A stretch of DNA of 64,000 nt, taken from Candidatus Latescibacterota bacterium (GTDB taxonomy: Bacteria > Latescibacterota > UBA2968 > GCA-2709665). The notes beneath the pieces were generated by a model. That model saw only the letters and a list, made by a program, of their open reading frames with translations, made no database searches and was not told the origin of the DNA. Both the position numbers and the translations under genes were made by a program. The DNA lies in contig CAXXXF010000016.1 of assembly GCA_963667175.2 (NCBI GenBank), positions 384,001 to 448,000 of the forward strand. The letters are read 5' to 3'. Below are positions 5,728 through 34,400 of this stretch, piece after piece (within the stretch, counting starts at the first letter, position 1; the number at the start of each line of letters is the position of its first letter).

Positions 5728-6012
5728 TCACACCCGAGACATTGTCAAATGTTGTGGATAGCGTGGAATCGCGGAACGCCGTCCCCCTCGGTCGCTGCGC
5801 CACCTTGAGTGCCGTCTACCTTCACGGATCATTTCGCACCCGTGCCGCCGAAGGTTTTTCAGCAGTTCAACCCGCTTCAAGTTATCACGACCTTCTCCTC
5901 GATGATAGTCCTCGCCCGCCGCCTCCAAAGCTTCACGCCGGTTATATTCCAATGCTTCGGAGAGGGTTTCCGTGAGGCTGACAGTGAATGCGTCGGCCAT
6001 TCGGAAGTTCAT
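5728..6012 (-). pseudogene. chimeric relic: uvrD-like 5' end + hicB 3' half + degenerate hicA
   Basis: MNFRMADAFTVSL matches the start of 13576-15645; 5880-5975 is nearly identical to the 3' half of hicB at 30103-30204; KRVELLKNLRRHGC...REGRRHS is HicA-like; frameshifted. Confidence 0.8.
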
Positions 6013-6049
6013 CTATGTGCTCACCGAAGGTCTATATCCCTGTACAGTT

Positions 6050-6712
6050 TCAGGTTGCAAGCAGGTTTCTGGAGGATTGACGTTCGAAAGACCCCCACGA
6101 ACAATAACAGCGCAAAGATACCTTGCGGAATTTTGGTGCAACCTTGGAGACGATGAGTTTCTCACGGGCCTGCCACATAGTATCGTGCAGGTTCTTGCTG
6201 TCATATCCGCCAAAAGTTGGAATCATCTTTAAATCCAGAAATCCTCGCGAAATTTGACTGCGTCCTCTCAGCTTGTTTTCTATCCAATAACCCTCCTCGG
6301 TAGGATGCCTAGGTAATATATGTCCGTTTCTAAAGTCCGAGTTCCAGCGAAAAAAGTCACTGGATATGCACTGAAACAGGCCTTCTGATACAGCAAAGAG
6401 ATCCAGGTCAGAACTTCGACCAAATGGAGCACCGAGTTTATACGGCGCCAATGACGATCCTAGGCGTGCGCTACCGACCAAGCTAATGTCTTTGGCGACA
6501 ACGCCAAGTTTCCAACCGAGCCACGTCCGCATCGACTCATATATTGCCGGACATTCTTGAAACGCATAGGGGATACCCTCGGAGAGCCATTGACGTGCTA
6601 TAGCGACTCGGTCGCGAAACTCACTCTGGCGCGAAACCGATTTCAATCGTTCCGCGGGCGGATAGCGATCAGATATTCCTGCCAATGATGAAGAGACCTC
6701 AAACGGCTTCAT
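6050..6712 (-). CDS. Pol-beta-superfamily nucleotidyltransferase-like protein
   Basis: LVGSARLG...SDLDLFAVS (hG[GS]x9-13DxD-like, with longer spacer); start overlaps stop of upstream gene. Confidence 0.7.
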   Translation of the reverse strand: MKPFEVSSSLAGISDRYPPAERLKSVSRQSEFRDRVAIARQWLSEGIPYAFQECPAIYESMRTWLGWKLGVVAKDISLVGSARLGSSLAPYKLGAPFGRSSDLDLFAVSEGLFQCISSDFFRWNSDFRNGHILPRHPTEEGYWIENKLRGRSQISRGFLDLKMIPTFGGYDSKNLHDTMWQAREKLIVSKVAPKFRKVSLRCYCSWGSFERQSSRNLLAT

Positions 6713-7304
6713 TGCACACTTCGGGAGTCAAGTAGCGCTTTCCCTCTGATCGATAATATCGCGCCAAAAGGTAGGCACTTCTTTGTTCTATTATGGTTAG
6801 CCGTTCGGCAGAGGCTTGCCTCGGCTCCGGATATTTTAGACGTGCGACTAAGTGTGCTGCACTGTACAAATCTGTCGATGAGGGGTTGATTTCCAGCAGG
6901 TTGCACGCCTGACGGAGGTTGTTCATTCTCCATCCGTAGTAAGCCACCCACAGATATAGGCCCGGAAGATCTTCTCGTGGGACGTAACGAGTTACCCGGA
7001 AAGCGAGTGCTATCTCGCGAGTTTTTCTCATGATGGTCGCGTCGTATCTCTTTGTAAGGACCCTGACAAGCTGCATTGCAATGGTGGAGCCCCCTTCCCG
7101 ACGCCCGCAGACGAAGGTCCGCCAAGCCGCGCGACCAAGCGCGATCGGATCGAACCCCGGATGGAAACGAAATCGGTGGTCTTCTCCCAGAATAAGCAAT
7201 GTGCACATCTGTCGGTTTGGCTGACCGACAGGATGGCTGTAGTATTCGCTCCGAACGAGGTCGATTTCCTTCTTCAGTTTCTTCCAATCACCATTGAAAT
7301 TCAT
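6699..7304 (-). CDS. soluble GT51 (peptidoglycan transglycosylase-domain) protein
   Basis: EDHRFRFHPG, GGSTIAMQL, RKTRE, YYG motifs; no TM anchor; likely start MNFNGDW just after the mod relic stop. Confidence 0.8.
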   Translation of the reverse strand: MNFNGDWKKLKKEIDLVRSEYYSHPVGQPNRQMCTLLILGEDHRFRFHPGFDPIALGRAAWRTFVCGRREGGSTIAMQLVRVLTKRYDATIMRKTREIALAFRVTRYVPREDLPGLYLWVAYYGWRMNNLRQACNLLEINPSSTDLYSAAHLVARLKYPEPRQASAERLTIIEQRSAYLLARYYRSEGKRYLTPEVCNEAV

Positions 7305-7309
7305 TCCAA

Positions 7310-7519
7310 TCACATCCTGGACACCTTCATTACCTCGTCCCCAAGGTAAATCTACAGCCTTTACGGCAATCCGTCCTGATGACGGTTTGGGGAATTGTCG
7401 TGAGGTGTCGCTGTGACACGTATCCAACGTTTACCTGTTGATCTCGGCTTCGAGGGCGGTCTTGAGAGATTTATACGGTTCGATTGCGCCGAAGAAGTAT
7501 GCCTGGAGAACGAAGAAGC
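7310..7519 (-). pseudogene. degenerate copy of mod 3' end (relic 1)
   Basis: aligns by eye with 25581-25790; encodes HSDTSRQFPKPSSGRIAVK...GDEVMKVSRM* with a frameshift. Confidence 0.9.
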
Positions 7520-7549
7520 AGGTTGGGTGACTATTGGATGCAACCCGTT

Positions 7550-8737
7550 CTATGCTTCGGTCGAGCGCATATCAAACGTCAACCTGACGTACCCACCCTT
7601 GTCGTCCTGAAAGAGATCAGGCTCGGTTCCATTAATGTCGAACATTGATTCTCGCATCACGGGCCACCCCCTACCCCGTTTCTCCATCAATCCTTTGACG
7701 ACCATGTTGTTCGCCATAGATTCGTTCCGGGATCGGGGATGGGCGCCAGCGCGAACACGCTCAACCGTCATGTGGTTTGGAAGCGTACCGGTACTCGTAA
7801 CGTCGACATGATCATCGTAAACCTCTAACAGGACATTCGAGCCGGTGATGGCATAGTCCCTGTGCACGACCGCGTTGACCAGCGCCTCCCTCAGTGCCGC
7901 TTCCGGTAAAGGGCCTCGGTCTTCTCGAAACAGATTTCTATAGGTCTCAAATCGCCCAAGCCCTTGGAACCATCCGACGGCACGTTGAACCTGCTCGTCC
8001 AAACGACCTTTGACATCAGCCACTTGTAACGTATTAGAAGCCCGGTCGTCACCTTCGTATGCGACGCATTGTATCCGAAAGCCGTGCGTTTGTGGGTAGC
8101 GCTGCGGTTCCTTGCCGAATGCCAGCACACCGTAGAGAGTGGGGTGCAAACCGTCTCCCAATTGTGCCACCACCCCGCGATTGCGGAGATCGTCAAAATT
8201 GTCAGGCTGAGGTTCTCCGAGAATATCGAGCCCGATCGCTTGCAAATACTCGCGAAAGCACTGGATATCGATATCCTCTGGTGTCGCAGCCTGAATCGGG
8301 CGTTCCTCGGTCATAATGTAACCGAAAGCGTTGTAGAGTTCCTGTAATTCGCTGGGTGATGGCTCGACGTTGCTGCGTTCCCGTCGGACCCAAACCCGGC
8401 CATCGTAGCACATCGGTTCGAAACTTCGCTGCCGAGGAATCTCAATCCAGTGTACCCAACCTTTCGGATGCTCATGCCACCCGCGACGTGCGGTTACCGG
8501 CGAGCTGCAACCCATTTTCAGGAAAGATGTCAACCTCTCCTGAACTCTTTCCACATCCTCTTTGACCCCCACAACTCCATGAGAAGGGTCGACGCCCAGC
8601 ATAATAACGCCGCCATCGGTGTTTGCAAATGCGCATATCGCTTTGCCGATCGCAGAAAGGTCGCCAGGGCCGCGTTTGAACTCGCTGTGCCGGTCCTCGC
8701 CAAGTTCGACCCGCTCAAGGGTGTTTAGCCAAACCAT
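7550..8737 (-). CDS. AlbA_2/Schlafen-like + HATPase_c_4 (RecG C-terminal-like) protein, copy 2
   Basis: EFKR...AFANTDGG (AlbA_2); ALREALVNAVVHRDY, SRN, GRG; paralogue of 21553-22731. Confidence 0.88.
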   Translation of the reverse strand: MVWLNTLERVELGEDRHSEFKRGPGDLSAIGKAICAFANTDGGVIMLGVDPSHGVVGVKEDVERVQERLTSFLKMGCSSPVTARRGWHEHPKGWVHWIEIPRQRSFEPMCYDGRVWVRRERSNVEPSPSELQELYNAFGYIMTEERPIQAATPEDIDIQCFREYLQAIGLDILGEPQPDNFDDLRNRGVVAQLGDGLHPTLYGVLAFGKEPQRYPQTHGFRIQCVAYEGDDRASNTLQVADVKGRLDEQVQRAVGWFQGLGRFETYRNLFREDRGPLPEAALREALVNAVVHRDYAITGSNVLLEVYDDHVDVTSTGTLPNHMTVERVRAGAHPRSRNESMANNMVVKGLMEKRGRGWPVMRESMFDINGTEPDLFQDDKGGYVRLTFDMRSTEA

Positions 8738-8825
8738 CAAACTTCCAATTCCTGATAACTCTTCAATGTGCTCATATTTCGCCACCATCCTGCCTCTACT
8801 GGTCACCAGCTACTGACGACTGTAA

Positions 8826-9024
8826 CATCCGGCTCCCCGAAGATGCCAAAGAGTTTTCCCGTGCCGTGTTTTTATTGGCTTCGGCCATATGGAGGTCTAC
8901 GTTCATACGAGTCTTTAGAACCGTGACGCGACCGAAATCTCTGTAATCCAAAGCGTGGGCATCCCAACTAGAGCGCGGGAGATCAACAGGTCGATTTCAG
9001 CGCATGTTTGTTCCTGACCTTGGC
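8826..9024 (-). pseudogene. degenerate internal fragment of mod (relic 4)
   Basis: TCCGGCTCCCCGAAGATG...TCGGCCATATGGAGGTC...GATCAACAGGTCGATTTCAGC aligns with mod ~25935-26135. Confidence 0.75.
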
Positions 9025-9732
9025 CTATTGATTAACTTGGGATGGGATGCCTTCCAGTAGTCTTAGCCAGTGTTGAAAATGCGGGCAAGTGGAACAAATC
9101 GTGTTGATGCCGATCTCACTCGCCACAAACGTACCCATCAATGGCTTCTGATACCCAGGTACGAGCGCTTCGATACGCTTGGAAGGTGCTGTGTCTGGCG
9201 AGTCATCAATCTCTTCCGGACCGGCAAATTGGTGTCTGATTTCCTCAAATGCCGTTGTCAGTTCAGGAAACCCTATTCCACGAGCGAACGTGTCACAATC
9301 ACTGAAGAGCATTGCTTCGAACTCGTGCATTGCAACGTAAGGGATAAAACGCCTCCGATCGAAATTTGGGCCCATTCCGATGGCGATGTCATCCAGCAGG
9401 GCATCTTCGACTGTCTTTGCTTTTTCCGACGAAGACTCCTGACCCGTAGCTTGCAGGCGACCCGGCCACGCTTTCGAACGGGTATTGGGCATTGCGTAGT
9501 AGTCCACCATTGTAGTCGCAAAGCTTCCCGGATCTTCTTTCAAGTGTCTTGAAATGTCTCTACGCACACTGTTCCACGGCCTGATTCCACCGCGCCTGTG
9601 CCGTTGGCGGGCGTTTCCAACCAGACGTGCGCTGACTCCGACAAACCCGAAATCGTACAAATGGGGCGCCAGGAGTTCATTGACGAATTGCTCTTCTGAC
9701 TGGCCTTCAACATGGACTAGCAACCGTGTCAT
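9025..9732 (-). CDS. DUF4276-family (TOPRIM-like) protein
   Basis: LLVHVEGQSEE, TTMVDYY, HEFEAMLFSD, PEEIDD...PSKR, CPHF; ATGA overlap with upstream ATPase. Confidence 0.85.
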   Translation of the reverse strand: MTRLLVHVEGQSEEQFVNELLAPHLYDFGFVGVSARLVGNARQRHRRGGIRPWNSVRRDISRHLKEDPGSFATTMVDYYAMPNTRSKAWPGRLQATGQESSSEKAKTVEDALLDDIAIGMGPNFDRRRFIPYVAMHEFEAMLFSDCDTFARGIGFPELTTAFEEIRHQFAGPEEIDDSPDTAPSKRIEALVPGYQKPLMGTFVASEIGINTICSTCPHFQHWLRLLEGIPSQVNQ

Positions 9733-10826
9733 GACGAAGATCCGCGACCCGTGTCCTCCTTTACAGGACGCCCACCGAGTTCGTTCTTTTCCCATAGCTG
9801 ACCGAGGCTGTATTCTTCAAGCCACGCCGCGAGGCTCCTGTTGTCCAATCTCTGGAACGTTGTCGCACGGTTTACGCGATCCGCGACAATTACGTCCCTT
9901 GGATCGAAATGATCCAACAGCACCGGCGACTGTGTTGCAACGATGATTTGGGATTCCACGGATGCCTGCTTCAGCATGGAAGCGAGAAGTGTCGTGGCGT
10001 AAGGATGGAGTCCAAGCTCCGGTTCGTCCAGAAGAACCACGGGCGGCCGCAGCGAAGTCGGCTGAAGAAGAAGCGTGGCAAGGGCCATAAACCGCAGTGT
10101 TCCGTCGGACAGTGAGGACGCGTCGAAGTACGCGTCCGATCCCGAGTGGCGCCACTCAAGACGAATCTTGTCTTCGTTCAATGCCATCGGTTCGAGTGCG
10201 AAGTCTTCGAAAAATGGCGCCGCCAGCTGGATGGCACGTTGAATCTGAGTGTATGAATCGTCGTGTTTGTTTTTCAGTAAGAACAGAAACGCCGAGAGGT
10301 TCGACCCGTCCGTACGAAGACTGCGATTGTCGTTGACATCGGAGGTCGTCTTCAATGGCGACGTGGAGCCTGCATCGTGAAAATGGTAGGTTTGCCAACT
10401 CTCAATTTGCCGGCCAACCTGGTGCGGAAAGGGAAAGTTGGGTGAGTTAGCCCAATTCACATCCTCCGAATTGCCTCTGACTGGGGCTGACGGATGGAAC
10501 ATCAGATTATTTATGTAGAGTCCATCAGAATCGTCACTGCTCAGTTCCATTGCAAATCCGGATCGGTCTCGGTCGAAAGAGACTTGCACATCGAGTGTTG
10601 GGGTGACTTTTGCGCCGAAATGCAGAATCCGGTTTGCTCCGCCCGCCTCTCTGACATAGCGCTCCAACCGTCCTTGGATGCAGGCGCGCAGAAACGAGAA
10701 CACTTCAATAAGGTTTGACTTTCCTGATCCGTTGGCCCCAATCAACACATTTAGAGGACGCAACTGAAGCATGGCATCGGCAATACTCTTAAAGCCTATA
10801 ACGAAGATTCCGTCGAGTTTGGTCAT
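9729..10826 (-). CDS. AAA_21/ABC-type ATPase
   Basis: GFKSI, GANGSGKSN Walker A, LSDGT signature, LLDEPELGLHP Walker B, ATQS. Confidence 0.9.
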   Translation of the reverse strand: MTKLDGIFVIGFKSIADAMLQLRPLNVLIGANGSGKSNLIEVFSFLRACIQGRLERYVREAGGANRILHFGAKVTPTLDVQVSFDRDRSGFAMELSSDDSDGLYINNLMFHPSAPVRGNSEDVNWANSPNFPFPHQVGRQIESWQTYHFHDAGSTSPLKTTSDVNDNRSLRTDGSNLSAFLFLLKNKHDDSYTQIQRAIQLAAPFFEDFALEPMALNEDKIRLEWRHSGSDAYFDASSLSDGTLRFMALATLLLQPTSLRPPVVLLDEPELGLHPYATTLLASMLKQASVESQIIVATQSPVLLDHFDPRDVIVADRVNRATTFQRLDNRSLAAWLEEYSLGQLWEKNELGGRPVKEDTGRGSSS

Positions 10827-10834
10827 GGCTCGCC

Positions 10835-10977
10835 TTATACCCGAAACACCTTCATCACCTCGTCGCCAAGGTGATTTATTACCTTCACAGCAATCCTACC
10901 GGACGTTGGTTTGGCGAAGGGCCGGGATGTGTCGCTATGGAGCGTTTCCCAGGCTTCCTGATTGATTTCGGCCTTAA
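10835..10977 (-). pseudogene. copy of mod 3' end (relic 2), bounded by IS1380
   Basis: reads ...AEINQEAWETLHSDTSRPFAKPTSGRIAVKVINHLGDEVMKVFRV*; stop lies 8 nt before the ATPase ATG. Confidence 0.92.
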
Positions 10978-12122
10978 CCTCAATGTGAAATTAATCAGGC
11001 GGCTTTCTGTAGGGCATTGCAATTTCGCGGTATTGTTTTTCGGTCTGCTTGTTGCGTTGGAGTCGCAGGGTGAGTCGTCCTTTTGGTCGGATGAAGTAGC
11101 CTGCGCGGTTGATGAGTTCGAACCGGAGTTTGCGTATGGATTTGAGGGCCCACCTGCCTGCTGCAGGCAGGTCGGTTGGTACTTTTCAAGGTGCGATTGC
11201 GTTGTGTCAGTCCGGTATCGATTTCGAAGTTGACCAGTCGGAGGGTGTAGGCATCCCCCAAGGTTTCTTCGACCTGGGTAAACACGTCCTTTAGAAACGG
11301 GATGGAGGCGCTGCCGTCATTGACGTTGTCGGGACGGTTGTGCACGCCCAGAAAGTGACCACTGTCGGCCAGGTAGGCGGTAATCGGATAGTAACTGGGC
11401 ACTTTGCGATGGTGCGGATTATAGCCACGACGGGCGCCATCGACGTGCTTTCCCGCGCACAAGACCGTGCCGTCCACGTCGATGGTCAACGTGCGGGAGC
11501 GCAACGCCTTGATCCTATCAGCCCGTTGATAAAGTCCATCCGGTCTACGTCCGGCCCTTGTGACCGAATGACGGCGTTGCGCTCCCTCCCCGAATCCAGG
11601 GATTCGCGTCGGTCGCGCGCCTTGTCTTCGGCCACAATGACTCGGCCTCGCCTGCGGAGCGACTTTTTCAACGGACTGCTATGGGCAACAACGTCGGCGT
11701 TGAGGGCTTTCAGGGCATTGAGACCCTCGTCGGGAAACCGTCTCAGAAACGTGCTCATGCTGCGGGGGGTCGGTAAATCCGTCAGACCGCAAAACCGCGC
11801 CAACGCCCACACTGCCTAGGTGACGGCGCAATTGCCTGTTCCAATCCACGTTTCGCAAATATCGCGTCAACGGTTCCAGACCCGCATACGAGGTGAGGCC
11901 TTCACCGGTGAATTCCATCGTCAAATCGTCATTGACACGCGCGTGCAAATCTGCTTTCTTTCTCACTGTACGTGGCCTTTCGTTTTGGGTTAATTGGGTG
12001 TTTCGTCGCTTCCCAATATACCAAAATGGAAGGCCTTTTCCTATTGAAAAATATAGACTTATTCGCCACTTCGCTTCGTCTTCAATAACCCGAAATCCAT
12101 CAACATTATTTTCGCATTGAGG
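10978..12122 (-). mobile_element. decayed IS1380-family insertion sequence
   Basis: TIRs CCTCAATGTGAAATTAAT / CCTCAATGCGAAAATAAT, TTAA target duplication; fragmented transposase (LTSYAGL, TIDVDGT, GYNPH, YYPI). Confidence 0.85.
11519..11678. mobile_element. 160-bp MITE nested in the IS1380 transposase
   Basis: TIRs CAGCCCGTTGATAAAGTC / CAGTCCGTTGAAAAAGTC, CTAT duplication; removal restores frame ADVVAHRIKALRSRTLT. Confidence 0.85.
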
Positions 12123-12303
12123 TTAAACGGCCCTAATTGTCAGAGAAATAATCATCGCACCCATTAGAATATTACCCTATTCCAGAGGCCAAAAATACCT
12201 ACACGGGATTTATGATCCCCTAATCGGCCGGATTTAGACCGCACTTGGATGAGATCCAGGGGTATTCCAAGCCTCTGGGTCTTATTTTTCAGGATCATTA
12301 CTT

Positions 12304-12797
12304 GAGTCCACTCCGAAAAGTCAAAATCGGCTCCGACAAGGTCGTAAATCACACCTGTCCAAAATCGGTTTCAGTCTTGGACAGCATCTGGTTCACTTCC
12401 GCGAAGCAATCCCTCGACCAAGATTGCCTGAGATTCACAAAGTGCTTATTTCACGGGCTTATTGAGACGGAAACAGCACAATTATGGCCGCTGGAAACGT
12501 CACCTTGTTCTTGGACAGCATTGCGCAGACGATGGCAAACCTGGTTTTCATTATCCGGGTCAAACTCGTCCAAAATCGCCTATTGTAGCCATTTTTCGAA
12601 CCTTATCTCTGGGAATCCGACGGTTCTTGGACAGCAGTGGTCGTAAATGGTGTTTTAGCCAGAAGCAAATCGAAACAAGAATTAATATAAAACTATGATA
12701 ATTAAATATTTATGTGGATATGGATAATTTCGAAAAATGGTCGTACCTGACCTAAATTGGTGGAAATTGCGGAAATCTCACTTTTCGGAGTGGACTC
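12304..12797. mobile_element. 494-bp non-autonomous element (MITE)
   Basis: perfect 18-bp TIR GAGTCCACTCCGAAAAGT, flanked by TTACTT direct repeats; no transposase. Confidence 0.85.
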
Positions 12798-13138
12798 TTA
12801 CTTGCTTTAATAAGGCCCACCACATTTTCAAGTAATTGCGTAATGGAAGCGGTACAGTTCTGCCATGCTATTGAATAGCTAACTTCATGAAATTCTCCTT
12901 CAGGTAACTTAACCTTGTATGAGAATCTGTAGCGTGCCTCACGTCCTTTTATCTCTTCTAACTTGAGACTGACCTCGTGTATCATATCGCGACTCCTTAT
13001 TTTTGGATTTATGTTTCCTGTCCTATTGGCATAAAGCGTCCTTTCCATTATTTCAATCGCAAGGATGATTTGCTTAAACCGTCCCTCTTTTAATGTCCCA
13101 CCTGCACAAAAACGGATTTGATAAAATACGAAATTCAC
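12752..13138 (-). pseudogene. AT-rich hypothetical gene with 3' end disrupted by the MITE
   Basis: removing 12304-12803 gives ending IKASNDPEK*; no recognisable motif. Confidence 0.4.
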
Positions 13139-13208
13139 GAAATAAATGGCTGGAAAAATCGTCCACAGCCATTGACGAAACGAGTCGGTCCTTCCTTGGC
13201 GAAGACTT

Positions 13209-13362
13209 TCATCCTGAGGAGGCCCTCAGGCCGACGAATGATCTACTGCAGCATCGGATCATCCCAGTGAGATTTGCACGTGTCGATACTTGAGAGGCAG
13301 CACGCCCGCCTGCAGCGCGGGACGGCAGCGGCGAAAGATTCTTAGACTCCGCTCAGAATGAC
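13209..13362. repeat. REP-like inverted doublet
   Basis: TCATCCTGAGGAGGCC...GATCT paired with AGATTCT...CTCAGAATGAC. Confidence 0.45.
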
Positions 13363-13575
13363 TTGCGTTGCAACAAACACGAACCGATGGCAACCTGGTT
13401 TTCGTTATCCGAGTCAATCCCGTACAAGATCGCGAATTGAAGTCACTTTTCGAACCTCATCTCTGAAAATCCCACGGTTCTTGAACAGCAGTGAAATTAC
13501 CTTTTATTTATTGAAATTCTAACCCGCGAGGTTGGGCGATGCATTTACCAATTATGGATGTTCCCAATGATGAGT

Positions 13576-15645: not shown

Positions 15646-15913
15646 TTCAGATTGCGTTGGGTTCGATCCTTTGCGTGTATGTGATTGCCGTGAAATACAT
15701 CAGCAAGAGCGCGAGACCCCTGGCGATATGAAACCAGGCAATGTGAATGGTAGCTTGGCGACCAGCGACGACGAATTCCAAGAAGTGATCGGTATGGGAA
15801 AATTCCGGGCTGCAGGTACCCGGAATTTGTACACATCTATCCGTTCCACGCAAAGAGTCCACCCTTGCAAAAATCCTATCGATCCTGTTAGCGCCTAACG
15901 GCCATCTACACTA

Positions 15914-16363
15914 TCAGACTACGGCTGGATGCGTGTGAATAATGCAAGCCGCTATCATGTCACCAATGAGAGCGGCTTGATCGGAATCGCCCGGCGGAAG
16001 CCCTACAATTTCACTGTGAGACGGATCGGCATCGTATTCCCCTTCGGCATCCAAGGGCTTATTGACGAAGCGAAGGCTTTCGAGTTCACTCGAGATGTAC
16101 TGTTTTGTTGCGCCGACATTCAATTCTGCAAGGCGACCACGTTTCTTCATATCCAACCGAGAGAGTCGCCTTACCTCTGCAAGTTGGCCGTCCTTAGTGC
16201 AATCGCGAATACACTCAAGCCAGTTAACGGACACGCCGGTATCATCGGGCCGATGTGAGCGCAGCCGGAATTCAGATCCATCCACCTTTCCATCCTCGCG
16301 TATGCTTGTAGGCTTAGCATATCGGACCACGTGATGCCCATCCGGCAGATTGTCGTCAGTCAT
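15914..16363 (-). CDS. hypothetical protein, possible ART/RES-like toxin fold
   Basis: VVRY...FRLR...GVSVNW...DPSHSEI pattern; ATGA overlap with upstream gene. Confidence 0.6.
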   Translation of the reverse strand: MTDDNLPDGHHVVRYAKPTSIREDGKVDGSEFRLRSHRPDDTGVSVNWLECIRDCTKDGQLAEVRRLSRLDMKKRGRLAELNVGATKQYISSELESLRFVNKPLDAEGEYDADPSHSEIVGLPPGDSDQAALIGDMIAACIIHTHPAVV

Positions 16364-22731: not shown

Positions 22732-22742
22732 ATTGAACGACC

Positions 22743-25520: not shown

Positions 25521-25580
25521 TGTGCATTCTCCGAGCGGAATTGGCACTCGTGGTTAAGTCGCTTAGCTTGCTGAGAGACA

Positions 25581-28379
25581 TCACACCCGAAACACCTTCA
25601 TCACCTCGTCGCCAAGGTGATTGATTACCTTTACCGCGATTCTGCCTGATTTCGGTTTTGCGAATGGCCGGGATGTGTCGCTGTGAAGGGTTTCCCAAGC
25701 TTCCTGGTTGATTTCGGCCTTGAGGGTTGTCTTGAGAGACTTGTACGGATCGTTCGCACCGAGGAAGTAGGCCTGGCGAACGAAGAAGCTCTCCTCGTTG
25801 TAGTCAGTGTCCACAAACCAGCAGGCGATTCCGTCGGCGTTATCGCTTCGGACCTCGCCGGTGTTGGGGTGGAAAACATCAACTCCATTGACTTTGACCT
25901 TGATTTGACCGTCTTCCGCGTCGAGGATGTCGATGTCCGGCTCCCCGAAGATGACAAATAGATTTCCTTTTCCCGTGTTCTTAAGGTCTTCGGCCATGTG
26001 GAGGTCGGCATTCATGCGCGCTTTGAGAACGGGGATTCGGCCAGCTTTGTTGAAGTCCGATGCGTGAGCATCGTAGTTGAAGGCACAGGCGATCAACACG
26101 TCGAAATCAGCATCGGCGGCCTCCCGGGCGGCCTGTACCAGATCGGGGCGGGAGACCGTACCGAATTCGGGCCCAACAAAGATACCAGCGCGTTTCTCCG
26201 AGCCGTATGACGCGTTGCCTTCAGCATACGTCCCCTCGGCGCAGACGAGGTCACCGGGCCAGGGTCTCATCCCAGAGAAATAAATCCGGTCTTCTTTGTG
26301 CGCCTGCTGGACGCCCGCGTTTTTGAGATTATCCAGGATCACCTCAGCGAAGTCCGGCTTTTCTCCGTAGCCGAGTTTCCCCTCGGCGACATTGTCTATC
26401 AATGCATCGTCTTCGTCGACACCGAGTAGTCGGTGCGGCGAGAGACTCTCGACCGTAAACGGTCCCGCTACCCTCACTTTCTTCTTGTCCTCGTACGGCT
26501 TGTCGTAAAGATACTCGGAATCGGCCTTTGCAGTGATCGAAGCGTCAATTTCCTTCTGCCGTGCGATGCGCTGTTCCCAGAAAGCAGTGAGAATCGGCTT
26601 AGTGGCCGGTGGCCAGTCGGGTGGCAGCTCTCGCGGGACCTCCCATTCTTCGAGCGTCCTCGCCTGGCCACCCGTTGCTGACAGCCGTCCGCGGAGTTTC
26701 GCGAGGTTCTCCTCATGTTTCTCCCAGATTACATCGATTTCGGCGTTGTTGGCGATGGACCTGAGCGTGATGTGAGGAACGCGTTCGTACACGAATCCCT
26801 GGCGAACGTCGTTATAAGTGGGCCGCTCCGGGGGAGCTTTGCGGGAGAGCGCGGCTTCCTTCAATTGCCCTTCTCTACTATCTGCAAGCAAATAATACGG
26901 ATAGCGTGCGCCCATGATGCGGGCGCGGGCCAGTGCCAGGGAGACTCGCGAGGTATCGATGGTGATCCAGCGGCGACCCCACTGCTCGGCGACGTAGGCC
27001 GTGGTGCCGGAGCCACAGGTGGGATCGAGGACTAAATCACCCGGGTCGCTCGTCATAAGTATACAGCGTTGGACTACCTTTCGTAGAGTTTGTACAACAT
27101 ACAGCTTTTCGTCACCGAATCCACTAATCCGTGTATCAAGCCACGTGGCATCAAGGCGAAAATAGGGGGCATCATTGAAATAGCGAATATATTCAGGCGT
27201 GTTGCCAAAACGCATAATTCGATTAGCGTTTTGGAGCCGGCACATGCCAGTGTAGTTTGTCTTCCATCCTCCCTTTCGTGGTGCATTTATCTTATAGCCC
27301 TCCATCTCAAACGGAAATATCGTGGATTCGCTCCCAGTCTGAGATTTCAGGTTGAAATGACCAAAAAGCCGATCTCCATTCAAATCATCAGGGTTAGTGA
27401 TCCTTCTGACCTCGCCCTTATTCGACATAGCGAACTTGTACTGTAGTGCGCCCGCCTCGCCTTGCACCCTTTCGCGAAATAAACGACGAAATTTCAGTCG
27501 TGACTTATCTTTTGCGAACCACAAAATATAATCAAAGGTATCGTCAACATACCTTCCACCAAGTCCAGTTGTCTTGGCGAACTTCAAAACGACAATACAG
27601 TTCTCTTCACCGAAGATCTCGTCCATCAATGCTCGCATCCGATGCACGTTATCGTCACCAATCTGCATAAATAGCGACCCACTGTCTATCAGCAAATCCC
27701 GCGCAACTGTCAGCCGATCCCGCAGATACGTCAAATACGAATGAATCCCATCCCGCCATGTATCCCGAAACGCCTTCACCTGTTCCGGTTCGCGAGTGAT
27801 GTGATCGGCCTTGCCGTCCTTGACGTCGCGGCTGGTCGTTGACCACTGGAAGTTGGAGTTGAACTTGATGCCGTAGGGCGGGTCGATGTAGATGCACTGC
27901 ACCTTGCCGCGCAGCCCCTCCCGCTCCGCCAGCGACGCCATTACCTGCAAGCTGTCGCCGAGAATCATTCGATTCGACCAATTGGCGTCGTGTTGGTAGA
28001 ACTCCGTCTGGGCGTCAGCGCTCGGCAAACCATTGAAATCCGCGAAAAGGTCGGCTTGTGCGCCGTCGCCGTTCTCCTGCTCCGCTTCCGTCTGCCTAGT
28101 GCGCTGCCGCAGGTCGTCGATCAATACCTTCGGTTGTACCTTCTCTTGGATAAAAAGCGGTGGCGCTTGCACGACAAGATCAGACCAATTCTGTTCATCC
28201 TTCCCCCGCCAGACAAGCTGGGGGTCAAGATCCCGGTTGCGACGCGCGTACGCGACCTGGATCGGATTGCGGTCGTCTTCCGCCATCACCGCCTGATACT
28301 CAGCCGTGGGAATATTCTTCCGCGATGCGTCCTGGTGCCGCAGGGTTTCGACAGTCTTGGTCGATTTTCGTTTCGCCAT
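25581..28379 (-). CDS. mod: type III-like R-M N6-adenine DNA methyltransferase (Mod)
   Basis: IYIDPPY, LDPTCGSGTT (beta-class order); downstream of res. Confidence 0.93.
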   Translation of the reverse strand: MAKRKSTKTVETLRHQDASRKNIPTAEYQAVMAEDDRNPIQVAYARRNRDLDPQLVWRGKDEQNWSDLVVQAPPLFIQEKVQPKVLIDDLRQRTRQTEAEQENGDGAQADLFADFNGLPSADAQTEFYQHDANWSNRMILGDSLQVMASLAEREGLRGKVQCIYIDPPYGIKFNSNFQWSTTSRDVKDGKADHITREPEQVKAFRDTWRDGIHSYLTYLRDRLTVARDLLIDSGSLFMQIGDDNVHRMRALMDEIFGEENCIVVLKFAKTTGLGGRYVDDTFDYILWFAKDKSRLKFRRLFRERVQGEAGALQYKFAMSNKGEVRRITNPDDLNGDRLFGHFNLKSQTGSESTIFPFEMEGYKINAPRKGGWKTNYTGMCRLQNANRIMRFGNTPEYIRYFNDAPYFRLDATWLDTRISGFGDEKLYVVQTLRKVVQRCILMTSDPGDLVLDPTCGSGTTAYVAEQWGRRWITIDTSRVSLALARARIMGARYPYYLLADSREGQLKEAALSRKAPPERPTYNDVRQGFVYERVPHITLRSIANNAEIDVIWEKHEENLAKLRGRLSATGGQARTLEEWEVPRELPPDWPPATKPILTAFWEQRIARQKEIDASITAKADSEYLYDKPYEDKKKVRVAGPFTVESLSPHRLLGVDEDDALIDNVAEGKLGYGEKPDFAEVILDNLKNAGVQQAHKEDRIYFSGMRPWPGDLVCAEGTYAEGNASYGSEKRAGIFVGPEFGTVSRPDLVQAAREAADADFDVLIACAFNYDAHASDFNKAGRIPVLKARMNADLHMAEDLKNTGKGNLFVIFGEPDIDILDAEDGQIKVKVNGVDVFHPNTGEVRSDNADGIACWFVDTDYNEESFFVRQAYFLGANDPYKSLKTTLKAEINQEAWETLHSDTSRPFAKPKSGRIAVKVINHLGDEVMKVFRV

Positions 28380-28533: not shown

Positions 28534-29307
28534 CTAAATATCCTTTATCATCTTCTCAATAATATCGTAGTCTCGATTGGGTGCAACGAAAGAATAGCCG
28601 GAAAAAATCACTAAAATTAAACGCGATAGGACTTTTTGATCCTCGTCATTCTTGCCCGTCGTTTCGAAGCGTGTAAGATAAGATTCCAATGCCTTGAAGA
28701 AATCGAATACCTCTTGATCTGCGATTGGATAATTCTGAAGGATAAATTTGATTTGGTCCTTTAGTATCTGCAAATTCAAAACAATCTCGCGAAACTCTGG
28801 GACATCTTCATTGATATAGTTGAGAAATGCGTAATATCCTTCATCGGCATTTTCACAGCCATTTAGGAAAACGTCTCGGAAGCCGTCAATTGTCAAGAGT
28901 TTCTGTATAGTTGGGTCATCGTTATGAAGATCTTTCATTCCACCATTGCTGCTAGCAGAAATTATCTCGGATAGAATATCGCGCTTGATCCTTTCGTAAT
29001 GTTTTACAGAGTTAGACCTGATTATATTTCGTTTCCTTCTTTCCGGAATGAAAACCACCATAAAATAGAAAATACATGACACAATGAATCCAACCAGAAA
29101 TTGGGGAAATATCGCATAGAATCCTTCCCACCCAGCTCGATCACTTAACTGTCCTTTGATCCATTTATACTCAATTGAAATAATCAAAACGTACACAATG
29201 AGAATGAAAGAAAACCAGAGCCAAACTCTTGAAAAAGCGCGCGATAAGTAAGTCAATACACGTAGAAGCGTCACACCCATCCTTCGTAACCTTCCTTTAT
29301 CAGACAT
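28534..29307 (-). CDS. AT-rich hypothetical protein with two N-terminal TM segments
   Basis: hydrophobic VWLWFSFILIVYVLII and FLVGFIVSCIFYFMVVFI; 257-aa ORF. Confidence 0.7.
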   Translation of the reverse strand: MSDKGRLRRMGVTLLRVLTYLSRAFSRVWLWFSFILIVYVLIISIEYKWIKGQLSDRAGWEGFYAIFPQFLVGFIVSCIFYFMVVFIPERRKRNIIRSNSVKHYERIKRDILSEIISASSNGGMKDLHNDDPTIQKLLTIDGFRDVFLNGCENADEGYYAFLNYINEDVPEFREIVLNLQILKDQIKFILQNYPIADQEVFDFFKALESYLTRFETTGKNDEDQKVLSRLILVIFSGYSFVAPNRDYDIIEKMIKDI

Positions 29308-29589
29308 TGATCACCTCCCGTTCCACGTAGGGGCGTATCTCCATCCGTAGATCCTGGCGGGTTGCCAAATCCACCGGTCGCCCCAACTGATCTTCCAGGT
29401 ATGCCTGAGCGCCGAAATAAGTTCCCAATCTGGCGGCACGCCAAACCGCACCAGGACATCTACGTCGCTGTCCCCTGCGGCCTGGTCTCGGGCAAAGGAG
29501 CCGAAGAGGGCCAGCTCGGTGACGCCAAAACGCTGCCCAAGGGTCGCCTTGTGCGCTCGGAGCACGCCCAGGACTTCATCTCTCGTCAT
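29300..29589 (-). pseudogene. MntA-type minimal nucleotidyltransferase antitoxin, frameshifted
   Basis: LALFGSFARD...SDVDVLV; the other frame ends VEREVINV*. Confidence 0.75.
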
Positions 29590-29721
29590 CGGATCTCTCT
29601 GGGGTCCGGAGGTTCGTATGCCAACAGCGCCGACTTTCGCTGTCGCTATTCCGTGGCATTGCCTCTCCCTCCGGGTACGTCTCAATTGGCCAGCTTCTTC
29701 GCATGTATCCGCTCTCGGATC

Positions 29722-30088
29722 CTATTTTACGGTTCCCTCACCTGGCTGAAACCGACCGATCATCTCACAAAAGGCCGCTTCCACTTTGGACTCGAAGTCC
29801 GCCTGCATTTCATAGACGTCGGTGAACTCTGCGAACGCCCACCGCCCGTAGTTCTCGTGGTTGTTCACGCCAGGCACCCAGTAGGTGTCCATAGTGGACT
29901 TCTTCTGTTTGGCGTCCTCACCACGATAGCCCTTGATTTCCACGATGAGGTGCAGAGGATCATCTTCACCCCGTCCGTCGTCAACCATGACGATAAAGTC
30001 GGGGATGTACGTCCGTGTTGTCGAACCATGTCTGTAGGGTGCTTCGAGCCCAAGATTGTGGTACTTAACGTAGGCTCGGACGCGAGGA
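29722..30088 (-). pseudogene. duplicated 3' end of res (nuclease domain)
   Basis: PRVRAYVK...YIPDF...VEIKGYRGEDAKQKK...WAFAEF nearly identical to res 31436-31810. Confidence 0.92.
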
Positions 30089-30102
30089 CAGGTCAACCCT
30101 CT

Positions 30103-30312
30103 TCATGTTATCACGACCTTCTCCTCATGATAGTCCTCGCCCGCCGCATCCAAAGCTTCGCGCCGGTTGAATTCCAATGCCTCGGAGAGGGTTTCCACGA
30201 GGCTCTGCCTTAATTCTTCATGGGTACGTTCCTGGCAATTCACGCCAGGCACTTCCTCAATCCAGCCAATCCACCACTCACCTCTGCGTTTCACGACGGC
30301 TGTGTATTCCAT
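30103..30312 (-). CDS. hicB: HicB-family antitoxin, followed by a 6-codon hicA stub (MKRVDL)
   Basis: WWIGWIEEVPGVNCQERT.EEL..SL.E.L; ATGA overlap into a truncated hicA. Confidence 0.8.
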   Translation of the reverse strand: MEYTAVVKRRGEWWIGWIEEVPGVNCQERTHEELRQSLVETLSEALEFNRREALDAAGEDYHEEKVVIT

Positions 30313-30531: not shown

Positions 30532-31311
30532 TCACGCCGCAACACGTTGCAGGACCTTCCGATTGAAGTCTTCTCGGGAAGCCAGAGATGATATCATATC
30601 GCCGCCGACGTCGGAGAGTCTCGCCAGATCCCTCCTGGGGATCTCCGCCTGATCTTCGAACACGAGAATGGACTCGAAGTGGAGGTCGTGCCGGTGGAAA
30701 TGTGAGAGCATGATCGTCGTTAGACGTGCCTTGTCACGGTTTGGTACACCGTAGAGGAACAAAGGAACGTCCCCCTTGCCCTCGATGCGGTAGTCCACGG
30801 GGTAGACCTCGGCGTTTGGTACCCGCGGTTGGAAGTCCCGTTCGATCTTGGCTTCGTCCACCATGCTGAATAGGAGATCGGTCAAGTCGTCGTAGAACGT
30901 GGAACCGACGTTCGAGCGGGACAGCATCGTCAGGTCGTAGACCCTGGTCAGCGCCTGTCCAAAGGAAAAGATGGCTTCCGGCAGCCGTTCAGGTGACGTC
31001 TCCAGCGAAAAGGCCCCGCCGTCCCATTGAAGTCCGGTTTCACCCATGATGCGCTCAAGGAGCATCCCCCGCGTTCCATCCAGAAATGCGTCCACGTCAT
31101 GCTCGTAGCTGATGTGCATGAGTGTGTGTCCGCGATCCGACAGCCGGAACCCGCCCGACCCCACTTCGGCAAGGTGAATCGGATAGCGGTCTCCATCGGG
31201 AAACTCGAAACGCGTGCGAAGCATTAACGCTCCGTCAGAGCGTTGTTCGACTCCTACGTCTTCGCAGAGACGTTTGCATAATAGCTCTCGAAGCGCGTCG
31301 AGGTCGATCAT
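30532..31311 (-). CDS. DUF1828-family protein
   Basis: T.F.FPDGD...LSD.G.T pattern, F.QAL.RV; C-terminal restriction-endonuclease-like YPVDY. Confidence 0.7.
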   Translation of the reverse strand: MIDLDALRELLCKRLCEDVGVEQRSDGALMLRTRFEFPDGDRYPIHLAEVGSGGFRLSDRGHTLMHISYEHDVDAFLDGTRGMLLERIMGETGLQWDGGAFSLETSPERLPEAIFSFGQALTRVYDLTMLSRSNVGSTFYDDLTDLLFSMVDEAKIERDFQPRVPNAEVYPVDYRIEGKGDVPLFLYGVPNRDKARLTTIMLSHFHRHDLHFESILVFEDQAEIPRRDLARLSDVGGDMISSLASREDFNRKVLQRVAA

Positions 31312-31435
31312 TAGAGCATCCGCTTCGGCATTGACCGGAGTCCTGCAAGCTCCTCGTCGGTATATAGCTTGGTATTCACGTGCAATCGCCGGCAGGCTCA
31401 TTCGAGTGATGACCCTACCTCGCCTCCCTTTTTGC

Positions 31436-34400
31436 TCAGGCTTCGACCGCCTGCTGGCCGAATCTCAGTATTTCGTTCCGGATCATTTCATCAAACGTCG
31501 CTTCCACTTTGGACTCGAAGTCCGCCTGTATTTCATACACGTCGGTGAACTCCGCGAACGCCCATCGCCCGTAGTTCTCGTGGTTGTTCACGCCAGGGAC
31601 CCAGTAGGTGTCCATAGTGGTCTTCTTCTGCTTGGCGTCCTCGCCTCGGTAGCCTTTGATTTCCACGATGAGGCGCAGGGGATCATCTTCACCCCGTCCG
31701 TCGTCAACGACGACGATAAAGTCTGGGATGTACGTCCGGGTTATCGAACCATGCCTGTAGGGTACTTCGAGTCCCAGATTGTGATTCTTAACGTAGGCTC
31801 GGACGCGCGGATGGGATTCGGCAACGCGGCAGAACTCCGCCTCCCAGTCGCTGTCCAGTACCACCCAATTGATATGGCAACGACGGGGGTCCGTTTGATA
31901 TCGCCTCGTTTTGGTCGTATTGAAATTCACCTGGGCGGTCGAACCGAACGGGTTGTAGGGATCGAGCACGGCCTTTACCGGACGACTGCCGATTTGCGCC
32001 TGTGTGATGGCCGCCGTGATTCGGTTGCACGCGTCGTCGGCAAGTGCCTGGTACATCAATTGGGCGGGATAGGTACCTCCCTTGCAGACAAGGCAGTTAT
32101 CCAACCATTTCCTTGTGATGCTCTTCAGTTGTCCGAAGAGATGGAGTTTCGGTTCGTCTCCAGGGTCCCGCCATTTTGTATACAATAGCCTCTGGGTAAG
32201 GTGGAATAAGAGTGTCGATTGCCGAAGATCGTTTGTATGGATCAGGTTGAGATCCACGCCTTCGCCAATGATCCCCTGATTGGTGGTGATGGACGGCCCG
32301 ATCAGATCCGGCGTCAGTTCCAGAACGGAGTCTTCGTTGAACTCGGCCGTAAGCCTCTCTTCAGGCAATTCCACGCGATATCCGGCCACCCGGGGGAATC
32401 GTATCTCGAGTGCGTCCCTCTCCGGTCGCATCGCCCGTACCTGTACAGTTTCTCGCGGGGCAGGTGGAGCAACCACGACAGGTTTGGCGGTAAAGTCGAA
32501 TGGTATGCCCAATACGTCAGCATACTCCACGTCGAACAAACCGATGTCATTGAGATCGTAGGACTGCCGGCGCAAGGCGCGGCCGACAACCTGCTCACAG
32601 AGCAACTGGGTGCCGAATGCGCGGACTCCCAGAACGTGGCTGACGTTGTTCGCGTCCCAGCCTTCGGTGAGCATGGACACCGAAACCACACAGCGAATGG
32701 AATCCCCGAGCCGGCCGGCCTTGCCGACCGTGTTCATGACCTCACGGAGAAGCTCCTGGTCGGTGATCTTCTCAGCCTGTTGTCGATCACCGGTACGCTC
32801 AATGATCTCTCGCCTGAATCGGTCGATTTCATCGGCGGCCATCTTCCGGAAACTCGTGTCCAATGCGTCGCCGGACTCCAACTGCTCGCTGTCTATAAGT
32901 AAAGTACGTGGCCGAGCGAACTTTTCTCCGTATTCGTCGAAGTTGCGAAACAGATCGAGGCGTCCCTGAACAAAGTTCTCCGAGCCGTCTTCTGTTTCGC
33001 GATGGAATCCGGAGATGTAGTCGTAAACCAGCTTGGAGGTCGACGTATTGTTGCAGACGACGATAAAACACGGCGGAACGCTTATGCCCGCCTTCTGCAT
33101 CACTTCATAGGTCTTCTTGTAATGCCCGTAAAGCGCCTCCAGCGCTGTCTGTAGTTCAACGGGAAGGCTCAGCGGATCGAGATGCTTGCTCTTGCCGCGT
33201 CCCTTCTTTGGCATGGCAGGACGAATGTGTTCCCAGAGGTTCCTGAACTTGGGCATGTCCCCGCCGGGGATGTTGTCCGCTACGGGCACGCGGGGAAGCT
33301 TGACAATACCGCTTTCAATAGCGTCCATCAGCGAAAAGTCGCACATTGTCCATGGGAACAGTGTCCCTTCCGCATATCCGGAACCGCGCAAGAAGAACGG
33401 CGTTGCGGATAGATCCATAACGCGGCTGATGCCAAGCTTTGTGTCGACCGTCTCCAGTCCAGAAATCCACAGACGCGCGGCTTCCGTGTTCTTCTCGGCT
33501 TCCTTCCGATCGTCACCCTTGAGCGTGCCTTCCTCCCCATCCCCCGGCATTTCGCGGTAGCAGTGATGGGCTTCGTCATTCAGAACGATGACATTCTTGA
33601 TCCCCATCAGTTCGGGCATCACCCGCTGGAGCATCTGACCTTCTGACTCCAGCGTCGCCAATGAGTCGCCACGGCCTTGAAGCAATCGACGACCACCCCT
33701 GGATAGGTCAAGGCGCTCCCGCAACTTGAACGCGTGGTAATTCGTGATGACGATCTTCGCCTGTTGAAGATCCGGCAGCATGTCGCCAGGGGCCAATTCA
33801 CGTTGTTTATAGTAGCTGTCCGGATCGTTGGGTTGCAACACACGCAGCCGATCCTTGATCGTGATGCCGGGGGTGACGACGAGGAATCCACGCGTAAATC
33901 GCCTGCTCTGTGGTCGGCGTACGGCGTTGATGGTCTGCCAGGCGATCAACATTGCCATGACCGTGGTCTTCCCGGCGCCGGTCGCCAGTTTTAACGCCAG
34001 TCGCTGTAATCCAGTATTCGCTTCTTTGTTGGCGCCGGCCAAATGGTCGAGGAATCTCCTGCCGGTCGCACCGGCTTGCGGGGCAACTTCCGTCAGCCAG
34101 ATGACCGTCTCCACAGCTTCGATCTGACAAAAGAATGGCTTAATATCGATGAACTGATGATGCCGCCAGTGCTCGAGTAGACGGGCGGTCTCAGGGGACA
34201 CCTGCCATTGTCTTGGATTCGGCAGTTTTCGCCATCGGTCGACCTGAAGACGAACGCCGTTGATAATTTCGGTTAAATCGTATTGCTGGCCTTCTGTCCC
34301 AAGTTTCCTGGCGGCCTCGTCGAAGACCATCGCCGTTTGATCCGTTGAAGATCCCTTTTGTTTTTTCGGCAATGGGATGGGCGAAATAAACTCGGCCCGC

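Follow-up and report, generated by a model that had tools for sequence, protein, structure and literature searches.

Gene content of the island

The window analysed (the whole of a 64,000-nt stretch of DNA from Candidatus Latescibacterota bacterium; assembly GCA_963667175.2, contig CAXXXF010000016.1, positions 384,001 to 448,000 of the forward strand) contains an island in which the genes for an intact type III-like restriction-modification (R-M) pair, Res and Mod, and for a UvrD-like helicase are interspersed with cargo genes, known defence systems among them, and with short pieces (‘stubs’) of further copies of these three backbone genes (Table 1; G and L numbers denote genomes and loci used for comparison). 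The island extends from a tRNA-Met gene to just beyond res, with dnaG in one flank and a serpin gene in the opposite one. Its GC content is 0.50–0.57, against about 0.62 in the flanks. A copy of the tRNA 3′-end was looked for at the far border and was not found, so there is no sign of site-specific integration.

Every island gene is encoded on the minus strand and stands between or behind Res, Mod and UvrD. In transcriptional order, Res is followed by a DUF1828 gene, a 5′ fragment of a HicA-like gene, a res 3′ stub, the genes for a nucleotidyltransferase (NTase) and a 257-amino acid (aa) protein, and Mod. Then come the Ppl and SLFN1 genes, the mod stub R21, a reverse transcriptase (RT)-nitrilase gene, three genes for proteins of 263, 280 and 149 aa, and UvrD. 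Behind UvrD, 2.6 kb of repeat debris precede the mod stub R10, HEC-01, an internal mod fragment, SLFN2 and the mod stub R7; the array closes with a GT51-like gene and its 220-aa partner (o220), a uvrD 5′ stub fused to a HicA-like gene, GmrSD (HEC-06) and a PD-(D/E)XK Cas4-like gene. The array may be co-transcribed; a promoter and terminator scan of positions 3000–22900 (16 promoter-like signals versus 14.7 in shuffled sequences, 16 terminator-like signals versus 21.6) was uninformative on operon structure.

Table 1. Backbone genes, stubs, cargo and collinear segments of the island (window positions)
Feature	Position	Strand	Evidence
Res, intact, 1026 aa, type III-like restriction subunit	31436–34516	-	Pfam ResIII 3.8e-9, RE_endonuc 3.5e-5
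Slot-1 cargo: DUF1828 protein, 289 aa	30532–31401	-	Pfam DUF1828 1.7e-15
HicA-like gene, 5′ fragment	30089–30204	-	90.6% copy of 5863–5979; abuts res stub
res 3′ stub, second res allele	29722–30088	-	res 31481–31811 vs 29758–30088, 90.9%, E 7e-131
Slot-1 cargo: small NTase (29311–29685) and 257-aa protein, no family named	28534–29685	-	Pfam NTP_transf_2 2.2e-9; PADLOC PDC-S09 5.6e-15
Mod, intact, 932 aa	25581–28379	-	PADLOC MTase_III 1366 bits; Pfam N6_N4_Mtase 1.3e-29
Slot-2 cargo 1: PHP-ATPase (Ppl) and SLFN/AlbA_2-HATPase_c_4 (SLFN1)	21553–25547	-	PADLOC Ppl 1.4e-37; Pfam SLFN_AlbA_2, HATPase_c_4
mod 3′ stub R21, decayed, in-frame stop	21259–21467	-	mod 25585–25789 vs 21263–21467, 79.5%, E 3e-46
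Slot-2 cargo 2: RT-nitrilase (defence-associated RT, DRT; UG5-nitrilase class)	18101–21258	-	PADLOC RT_UG5-nitrilase 6.4e-113
Slot-2 cargo 3: three overlapping genes, 263, 280, 149 aa	15914–18027	-	92–98% aa identity in G009
UvrD-like helicase, intact, 689 aa, third backbone gene	13576–15645	-	Pfam UvrD-helicase, UvrD_C
Debris between two locus copies	10978–13575		DDE transposase fragment 10995–11504 (Pfam DDE_Tnp_1 6e-6) and two small repeat families
mod 3′ stub R10, open to stop codon	10835–10977	-	mod 25585–25721 vs 10839–10975, 87.6%, E 6e-43
Cargo: HEC-01 (ABC ATPase and DUF4276)	9025–10826	-	PADLOC HEC-01A 4e-129, HEC-01B 7e-73
Internal fragment of third mod allele	8738–9001	-	mod 25936–26111 vs 8828–9001, 72%, E 6e-18
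SLFN2, second SLFN/AlbA_2 copy	7550–8737	-	79.6% nt, 82.6% aa to SLFN1; codon-position differences 55/24/159
mod 3′ stub R7, frameshift and stop	7310–7519	-	mod 25580–25789 vs 7309–7519, 76.3%, E 1.6e-37
Cargo: GT51-like transglycosylase and 220-aa partner (o220)	6050–7304	-	Pfam Transgly 5.7e-23
uvrD 5′ stub (12 codons) fused to HicA-like gene	5728–6012	-	uvrD 15608–15645 vs 5975–6012, 84%, 38 nt, E 2e-4
GmrSD (HEC-06), then PD-(D/E)XK Cas4-like gene	3086–5591	-	PADLOC HEC-06 1e-225
uvrD 3′ stub, 30 nt	3829–3858	-	Before PD-(D/E)XK gene; self-BLASTN
tRNA-Met	2923–2999	+	Left border of island; ARAGORN, Rfam
Mosaic: vs G009 (Res-DUF1828-HicA-like 5′ part)	34192→30089		94.7% over 4104 nt; stops inside HicA-like gene
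Mosaic: vs G007 intact Mod 3′-end and RT	21467→18101		93.9% over 3368 nt
Mosaic: vs G009 three-gene set and UvrD	18027→13583		91.6%
Mosaic: vs G012 stub and HEC-01	10972→9038		93.3% over 1935 nt
Mosaic: vs G013 Mod 3′-end and GT51-like pair	7519→6323		70%

The Res-Mod-UvrD backbone and its slots

A first reading of the window, made from the sequence only, had proposed a res-mod-uvrD backbone with a cargo slot in each of its two gaps. This backbone is real and widespread across phyla. Scanning one genome per species brought up over 557 Mod relatives, and the 80 best loci (63–74% aa identity), drawn from many phyla, were examined. Res was found upstream of Mod wherever both were seen (63–84% aa identity to the Res described here), and 51 of the 80 loci had a UvrD-like helicase no more than 10 kb downstream of Mod. 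Slot 1, between Res and Mod, was empty (120 nt or less) in 30 of the 77 loci in which it could be measured and filled in 47 (median filled size 0.7 kb); slot 2, between Mod and UvrD, was empty by the same limit in 12 of 51 loci and filled in 39 (median 1.6 kb). At several of the empty Mod-UvrD junctions the mod stop codon overlapped the uvrD start. Both slots ranged from empty up to several kb. Defence genes occupy the filled slots: HEC-01/AriA-like ABC ATPases made up 9 of the 72 open reading frames (ORFs) found in slot 2, where S8 peptidase with AAA, HerA with SIR2, HamA, ApeA, GmrSD and ThsB-TIR were also present.

Type III R-M systems are two-gene operons in the order mod-res. The traits of the type are present here, namely a Mod of the N6/N4 methyltransferase family with a variable recognition region, and a Res with a helicase-type ATPase and an endonuclease domain. 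The term ‘type III-like’ is used because the Res-first order and the UvrD-like helicase depart from the mod-res operon. Matches of Res to the PADLOC REase_III models were weak (best E-value 4.5e-6).

In this genus the PD-(D/E)XK Cas4-like gene (3086–3895, minus strand) behaves as a fourth backbone gene with a slot of its own; UvrD overlaps it in G009, G013 and G007. No such gene was detected after UvrD in the 80 cross-phylum loci with the query used. In G007, GmrSD is placed between UvrD and a uvrD 3′ stub.

The gene ends that border the slots were not exceptionally conserved in a windowed analysis: by third-position conservation, the last 70 codons of Mod ranked 191st of 863 windows, the first 70 of UvrD 26th of 620, and the last 70 of Res 786th of 957. 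The last 10 residues of Mod (GDEVMKVFRV or near variants) were present in all the loci printed. The segment of mod at nt 751–1350 (window ∼27030–27630) was hypervariable (pairwise identity 0.36–0.56 versus a gene mean of 0.67 in 78 alleles), as expected of a target-recognition region, and the alleles probably differ in specificity. A variant of Mod carries an in-frame insertion of about 150 residues near residue 822, giving open frames of 1087–1093 aa (L099, 6811–7262; also in G024, G026 and G054).

Stubs of backbone genes precede different cargo genes

Self-BLASTN of positions 1–40000 recovered, with E-values from 2e-4 (uvrD start) down to 7e-131 (res 3′-end), the three copies of the mod 3′-end, the internal mod fragment and the copies of the res 3′- and uvrD 5′-ends, all where the sequence-only reading had placed them. 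The mod 3′-end has no other copy in the 5.5-Mb genome, its four matches all lying in the island. The same reading had each stub ending directly in front of a different cargo gene, and this was borne out. The R7 stop codon (7312–7310) is followed after 5 nt by the ATG (7304) of the GT51-like gene, that of R10 (10837–10835) after 8 nt by the ATG (10826) of HEC-01A, and that of R21 (21261–21259) after 102 nt by the ATG (21156) of the RT-nitrilase gene, while the intact mod precedes the PHP-ATPase gene. Beyond what had been noted earlier, the analysis revealed the SLFN duplication, the HicA-like fragment at the res stub, the 30-nt uvrD 3′ stub, a junction common to R21 and R7, the truncation of R10 by repeats and an older, decayed copy of the locus. 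The residues MNF, encoded by the first three codons of UvrD, the GT51-like gene and GmrSD, were considered as a trace of the uvrD start and set aside, 9 nt being too little.

Two of the stubs retain a signature of selection. R10 differs from the resident mod at 19 sites, distributed 0/2/17 over the codon positions, with 17 synonymous changes and one non-synonymous codon change; the differences of the res stub are distributed 5/4/21 (P = 4e-5 for the third-position excess). Changes that are mostly synonymous or at third positions indicate that both diverged inside working genes, and the stubs come from once-functional alleles. These alleles probably belonged to close relatives. A phylogeny of the relics with mod homologues had been suggested; the tree and identity ranking of the stubs against the 78 alleles were too weakly resolved to name donors, with R21 and R10 paired at a support of 0.84 in a short tree.

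The stubs are not equivalent. The duplicated Schlafen/AlbA_2-HATPase_c_4 gene (1227 nt; 21506–22731 versus 7513–8737) remains homologous past the SLFN stop codon and the 3′ flank into the stub, the sole break being a 45-nt indel between TGCTTCTT repeats. The left junction of R21 is common to R7 and to a stub in G009, and R21 and the G009 stub have two substitutions in common that occur in none of 82 intact mod genes. R21 and R7 thus descend from one ancestral junction and stand for a single event. The left edge of R10 coincides with the start of a high-copy repeat contig; R10 is a mod copy truncated by repeat or insertion sequence (IS) debris. The stretch from 8963 to 8738 is 81.9% identical to the G009 mod, its insertion included, and the internal mod fragment and the N-terminal extension of SLFN2 would both derive from the Mod variant with the insertion near residue 822. 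The match of the HicA-like fusion gene to HicA_toxin was below the Pfam cut-off (19.8 versus 27 bits). The earlier proposal that cargo from related loci was stacked by recombination holds for origin and stacking, and went too far on ‘att’ sites and on independent events.

The same cargo behind intact mod genes in other genomes

Mod matches were found in 28 of 61 related genomes searched, and 20 loci were taken from 19 of them. As the sequence-only reading had anticipated, HEC-01, the GT51-like pair, RT-nitrilase and the Ppl-SLFN pair each stand directly behind an intact mod in another genome. HEC-01 lies 12–15 nt behind Mod in four of the 80 cross-phylum loci (L007, L016, L019 and L071), and the Ppl-SLFN pair follows Mod in G002. 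G013 carries Res, Mod, the GT51-like gene (14 nt after Mod), the 220-aa gene, GmrSD, UvrD and the PD-(D/E)XK gene. In G007, an RT-nitrilase gene (95% aa identity) starts about 107 nt behind Mod and is followed by UvrD. G009 has Res (95%), DUF1828 (99%), a HicA-like gene, Mod, a Ppl remnant, SLFN (86%), a mod stub, the three-gene set, UvrD (90%) and the PD-(D/E)XK gene; it has no RT gene. Segments of the window are collinear with these loci (Table 1). Identity to G007 is 83% within R21 and about 94% from its stop codon on, and the similarity extends 80 nt beyond the end of the RT gene, where it breaks off behind a hairpin. This suggests that the stub was already there when the RT cassette came in at its 3′ edge, and the cassette would be much younger than R21.

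At this one chromosomal site, the number and the order of cassettes vary between related species, as had been expected of such an array. The PD-(D/E)XK-tRNA-dnaG flank is common to all five same-genus loci. In G012 the serpin-side flank leads directly into a mod stub, HEC-01, a uvrD 3′ stub and the PD-(D/E)XK gene; in G010 it leads into HEC-01, a mod stub, the GT51-like pair, a uvrD 5′ stub and the PD-(D/E)XK gene. Only 3–4 kb separate the flanks in these two genomes, occupied by stubs and cargo alone. The lower half of the array in the window has the G010 pattern plus extra pieces, which suggests that an older copy of the locus has decayed here and left this part behind, with the intact operon lying upstream of it.

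Displaced backbone stubs were found in 8 of the 20 related loci. Their breakpoints differed, those in mod falling at residues 766, 798, 816, 823, 854, 895, 905 and 908. In locus L097 (G057; 13576–18651), from a different family within the class, Mod is intact, and behind it stand three to four mod stubs, two 5′ fragments of GmrSD and HEC-01; this locus is an independent multi-stub stack.

Duplicated gene ends could also be left if part of the operon had duplicated locally in tandem, with later divergence and loss. The resident mod is indeed the nearest to each stub among the 78 alleles, the pairing of R21 with R10 points the same way, and the arrangement resembles the insertion of R-M units with long target duplications as described in the accessible text of Furuta et al. 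(2010; PMC2853133), in which the repeats measure 46–423 bp and are 88–100% identical. As in those insertions, a unit here lies between long direct repeats with no mobility gene, the Ppl-SLFN pair being flanked by the mod 3′-end and a copy of ∼205–250 nt that are 78–80% identical to each other. Going by that text, two differences stand out: the stub repeats in the island are only 76–88% identical, and the R-M gene is the target, not the inserted unit. Further, the nearly all synonymous differences of R10 place it within a working gene for most of its divergence, and unrelated cargo stands behind each stub. Stub and cargo together are 93–94% collinear with loci of other species, well above the identity of the stubs to the resident mod (78–88%). 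This collinearity favours import of a stub with its cargo over target duplication. A local tandem duplication is a very improbable origin of the array.

Mobility genes and the comparison with integrons

The island had been called integrase-free. No integrase or recombinase was found among the 31 ORFs of the window scanned with Pfam, and six-frame searches gave three matches to Phage_integrase in the genome, all on other contigs, and none in the genome to Resolvase (serine recombinase). The mobility genes seen in the island were limited to the DDE transposase fragment and small repeat elements. These comprise a 292-nt element (12347–12639) with at least 20 copies in the genome (91–100% identity), and a 167-nt inverted-repeat element (11514–11682) with at least 17. 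Contig depth was 75–250 over the debris versus about 5 elsewhere. Contigs from two public sequencing runs (X1 and X2; see below) lack the 164 nt at 11516–11679, so the insertion is polymorphic. The only Rfam matches in the window at gathering scores were the tRNA and pieces of a group II intron. Homologues of ComEC and DprA were considered as support for transformation and dropped, since both also match in non-competent control genomes.

Like an integron, the locus has accumulated a co-oriented array of promoter-less-looking cassettes at one place. Unlike an integron, it has no IntI and no attC-like repeats, and its breakpoints vary. No attC-type palindromes were found, the repeats between cargo genes being coding-sequence stubs only, although no dedicated attC model was run. 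The proposal that the stubs act as integron-like att sites found no support in its original form: breakpoints vary, the gene ends are not exceptionally conserved, and displaced stubs occur in only about 6 of the 80 cross-phylum loci.

A related possibility is that the backbone gene ends and the stubs form a selected device for cassette capture, providing portable homology arms between distant hosts, with the stubs kept as landing pads and as contexts for translation start. It would explain why cassette borders fall at the mod stop codon and why an older stub's edge, and not the intact mod, received the RT cassette; the recurrence of the Mod C-terminus, the high rank of the UvrD start and the common orientation of all the cargo would also fit. 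The last 70 codons of Mod and Res are unremarkable, however, the breakpoints vary, and most filled slots have no stub. Moreover, R21 and R7 count as one event, and R10 as an accident of repeat or IS insertion. The data do not separate selection for capture from a by-product of ordinary recombination, and a selected device is considered unlikely.

Support for the assembly

Three public runs labelled sponge metagenome contain window sequence, with 0.58 (X1), 0.38 (X2) and 0.49 (X13, from another study) of the sampled words present; X1 may be the source sample and is hence not independent. Contigs of X1 bridge the GT51-like/R7/SLFN2 and the RT/three-gene set junctions with three to four differences each, and contigs of X13 bridge SLFN2/mod fragment/DUF4276 and HEC-01A/R10. 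Another X13 contig joins position 18027 to sequence like the mod 3′-end with about 129 letters between them, which is the G009 arrangement without the RT gene. An X13 joint between 9812 and 25581 was weak, with 27 letters on one side, and was set aside.

These data bear on the possibility that strain variants in a metagenome were assembled into a chimeric array. The runs do show strain variation, with contigs at 93–96% identity beside others above 99%, and the contamination estimate of the genome is 4.75%. Yet the SLFN-stub junction recurs in G009 and the stub-HEC-01 junction in G012, both independently assembled, and the whole run from HEC-01 through a mod stub, the GT51-like gene, o220 and a UvrD stub to the PD-(D/E)XK gene recurs in G010. 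Contigs of X1 and X13 bridge junctions, and a truncated stub set against unrelated sequence is impossible to obtain by switching between collinear strains. An assembly chimera is thus hardly credible as an explanation.

Cargo genes and flanking features

Several cargo genes recur in other settings. The DUF1828 gene follows Res in L010, L019, L038, G009 and G002, and the NTase gene stands directly behind Res in L007, L008, L049 and L065. Known defence systems found as cargo can also stand away from the host operon: in G002, HEC-01 is placed upstream of Res, and in L013 the Ppl and SLFN genes are adjacent to each other outside the slots.

The three-gene set had no Pfam or PADLOC match. It occupies 15914–17924 (minus strand), with a counterpart at 9607–11614 of L099. 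Slot-1 ORFs of L041 and L107 also gave matches to part of the 280-aa protein.

The GT51-like pair is a candidate two-gene defence system, present behind the intact Mod in G013 and also in G010 and G025. In the comparison loci the pair lies at 7774–9004 of L095, 9351–10599 of L102 and 11150–12392 of L108. Its first gene encodes a GT51-like transglycosylase without an obvious partner domain. The pair had been labelled GT51-NTase. The first half of the label agrees with the Transgly match; the second is only a lead, from one weak NTP_transf_2 match in the Atlas, the 220-aa protein having no Pfam or PADLOC match.

At the island's right edge, immediately upstream of Res, two pieces of a group II intron were matched by Rfam on the plus strand (domains D1–D4 at 34691–34829, 95 bits; V–VI at 35278–35356, 41 bits). 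The roughly 450 nt that separate them contain no maturase ORF, and the pieces are an ORF-less intron or a remnant. The flank beyond contains the serpin gene (35781–37175, plus strand) and a gene for an ankyrin-repeat protein (39112–39858, minus strand).

A model for the stacking of cargo

The arrangement is probably explained by ordinary homologous and illegitimate recombination between alleles of the operon, which would have stacked the cargo, and not by an analogue of the integron. One intact type III-like operon carries unrelated cargo, antiphage systems among it, in its gaps, with pieces of at least two further, diverged copies of the operon alongside, at a fixed site between the serpin gene and tRNA-Met. 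In the model, turnover would usually be clean: DNA from a related locus, by whatever route it enters the cell, would recombine within the backbone coding sequences that flank a slot on both sides. Such two-sided replacement fits the many filled slots without stubs. Sometimes homology would be used on one side only, the other end being joined illegitimately, so that a cassette is added and not swapped; alternatively, a deletion or an IS element would remove most of an old copy. Either way, a stub of a backbone gene would be left in front of the added cassette, and repetition would produce a stack. No dedicated recombinase and no specific site would be needed. Some joints in the island are abrupt, such as those between the HicA-like fragment and the res stub (30088/30089) and between the SLFN flank and the mod stub, and older cargo has been retained. 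One-sided joints, deletions and IS hits fit these abrupt joints, the varied breakpoints and the lack of a recombinase.

The backbone with its slots, the donor-like loci, the collinearity of stubs with their cargo, the selection signature and the variation between species and strains at the predicted borders are observed; the recombination pathway, the entry of DNA, the order of events, co-transcription and defence by the unnamed cargo are predictions. Several points weigh against this interpretation. The resident mod is the nearest allele to each stub, with a margin of only 1.5–2.4 identity points, so a local origin of the alleles has to be reckoned with. The crossover that brought in the RT cassette could not be placed, since an informative-site scan found G007-like and G009-stub-like sites interleaved within R21. 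The RT region (∼18.4–21.0 kb) and most of Ppl were not covered by public contigs of four runs, which at a depth of about 5 does not amount to absence; the full 32-kb order thus rests on one assembly plus support for single junctions. Finally, the scarcity of displaced stubs across phyla means that the stacking route may be peculiar to this lineage.

Relation to known systems and significance

The embedding of defence genes in defence operons is known. In the accessible text of the preprint of Payne et al. (2024; 10.1101/2024.01.29.577857), such genes are nested within Hma, BREX, DISARM and type I R-M operons, and the origin of the embedding is left open (‘genomic sink’). Judging from that text, the island has the same character, with unrelated, co-oriented defence genes nested between the genes of a multi-gene defence operon, and HEC-01 and the GmrSD-type HEC-06 named there are cargo here. 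Two differences from the systems treated there are the host, which is here a type III-like Res-Mod pair with a UvrD-like helicase, and the stubs and sister loci, which point to recombination through the backbone genes. The Hma model was absent from the PADLOC matches of the three backbone proteins (best 25 listed for Mod and the helicase).

Arrays at type VI secretion system (T6SS) loci of Vibrio cholerae are reportedly also treated by Kirchberger et al. 2017, whom Hussain et al. cite on them. As described in the accessible text of Hussain et al. (2021; PMC8189183), these loci hold arrays of orphan immunity genes and truncated effectors in which old modules are retained. The logic of homology-facilitated illegitimate recombination, yielding arrays with truncated remnants, would be the same as in the island. 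According to that text, the T6SS cargo consists of effector-immunity pairs of one system; the cargo here consists of whole, unrelated antiphage systems, and the remnants are of R-M and helicase genes.

The sequence-only reading knew of no prior description. Embedding as such had been published for other hosts; the full-text literature outside subscription journals and supplements yielded no account of stacking punctuated by stubs in a type III-like R-M backbone. Nor were the backbone, its reach across phyla and the record of cargo addition kept in the stubs found in that literature. With donor-like loci, cassette borders at the stop codon of mod, stubs from foreign alleles and cassettes present or absent in close relatives, this locus and those of its sister species form a readable record of embedding. 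The backbone is also a second large hunting ground for new defence genes, with its more than 557 mod relatives and mostly unnamed cargo; the GT51-like gene with its 220-aa partner, the 263/280/149-aa set and the DUF1828 protein are candidates that may act in defence. More speculatively, and with low probability, the backbone may be a carrier that works across phyla, its own coding sequence providing universal homology arms by which defence cassettes are exchanged and stacked without a recombinase. The stubs would then act as secondary landing sites, a role suggested by the RT cassette, which came in beside an older stub. If this is true, the carrier would be a counterpart of the integron based on homologous recombination.

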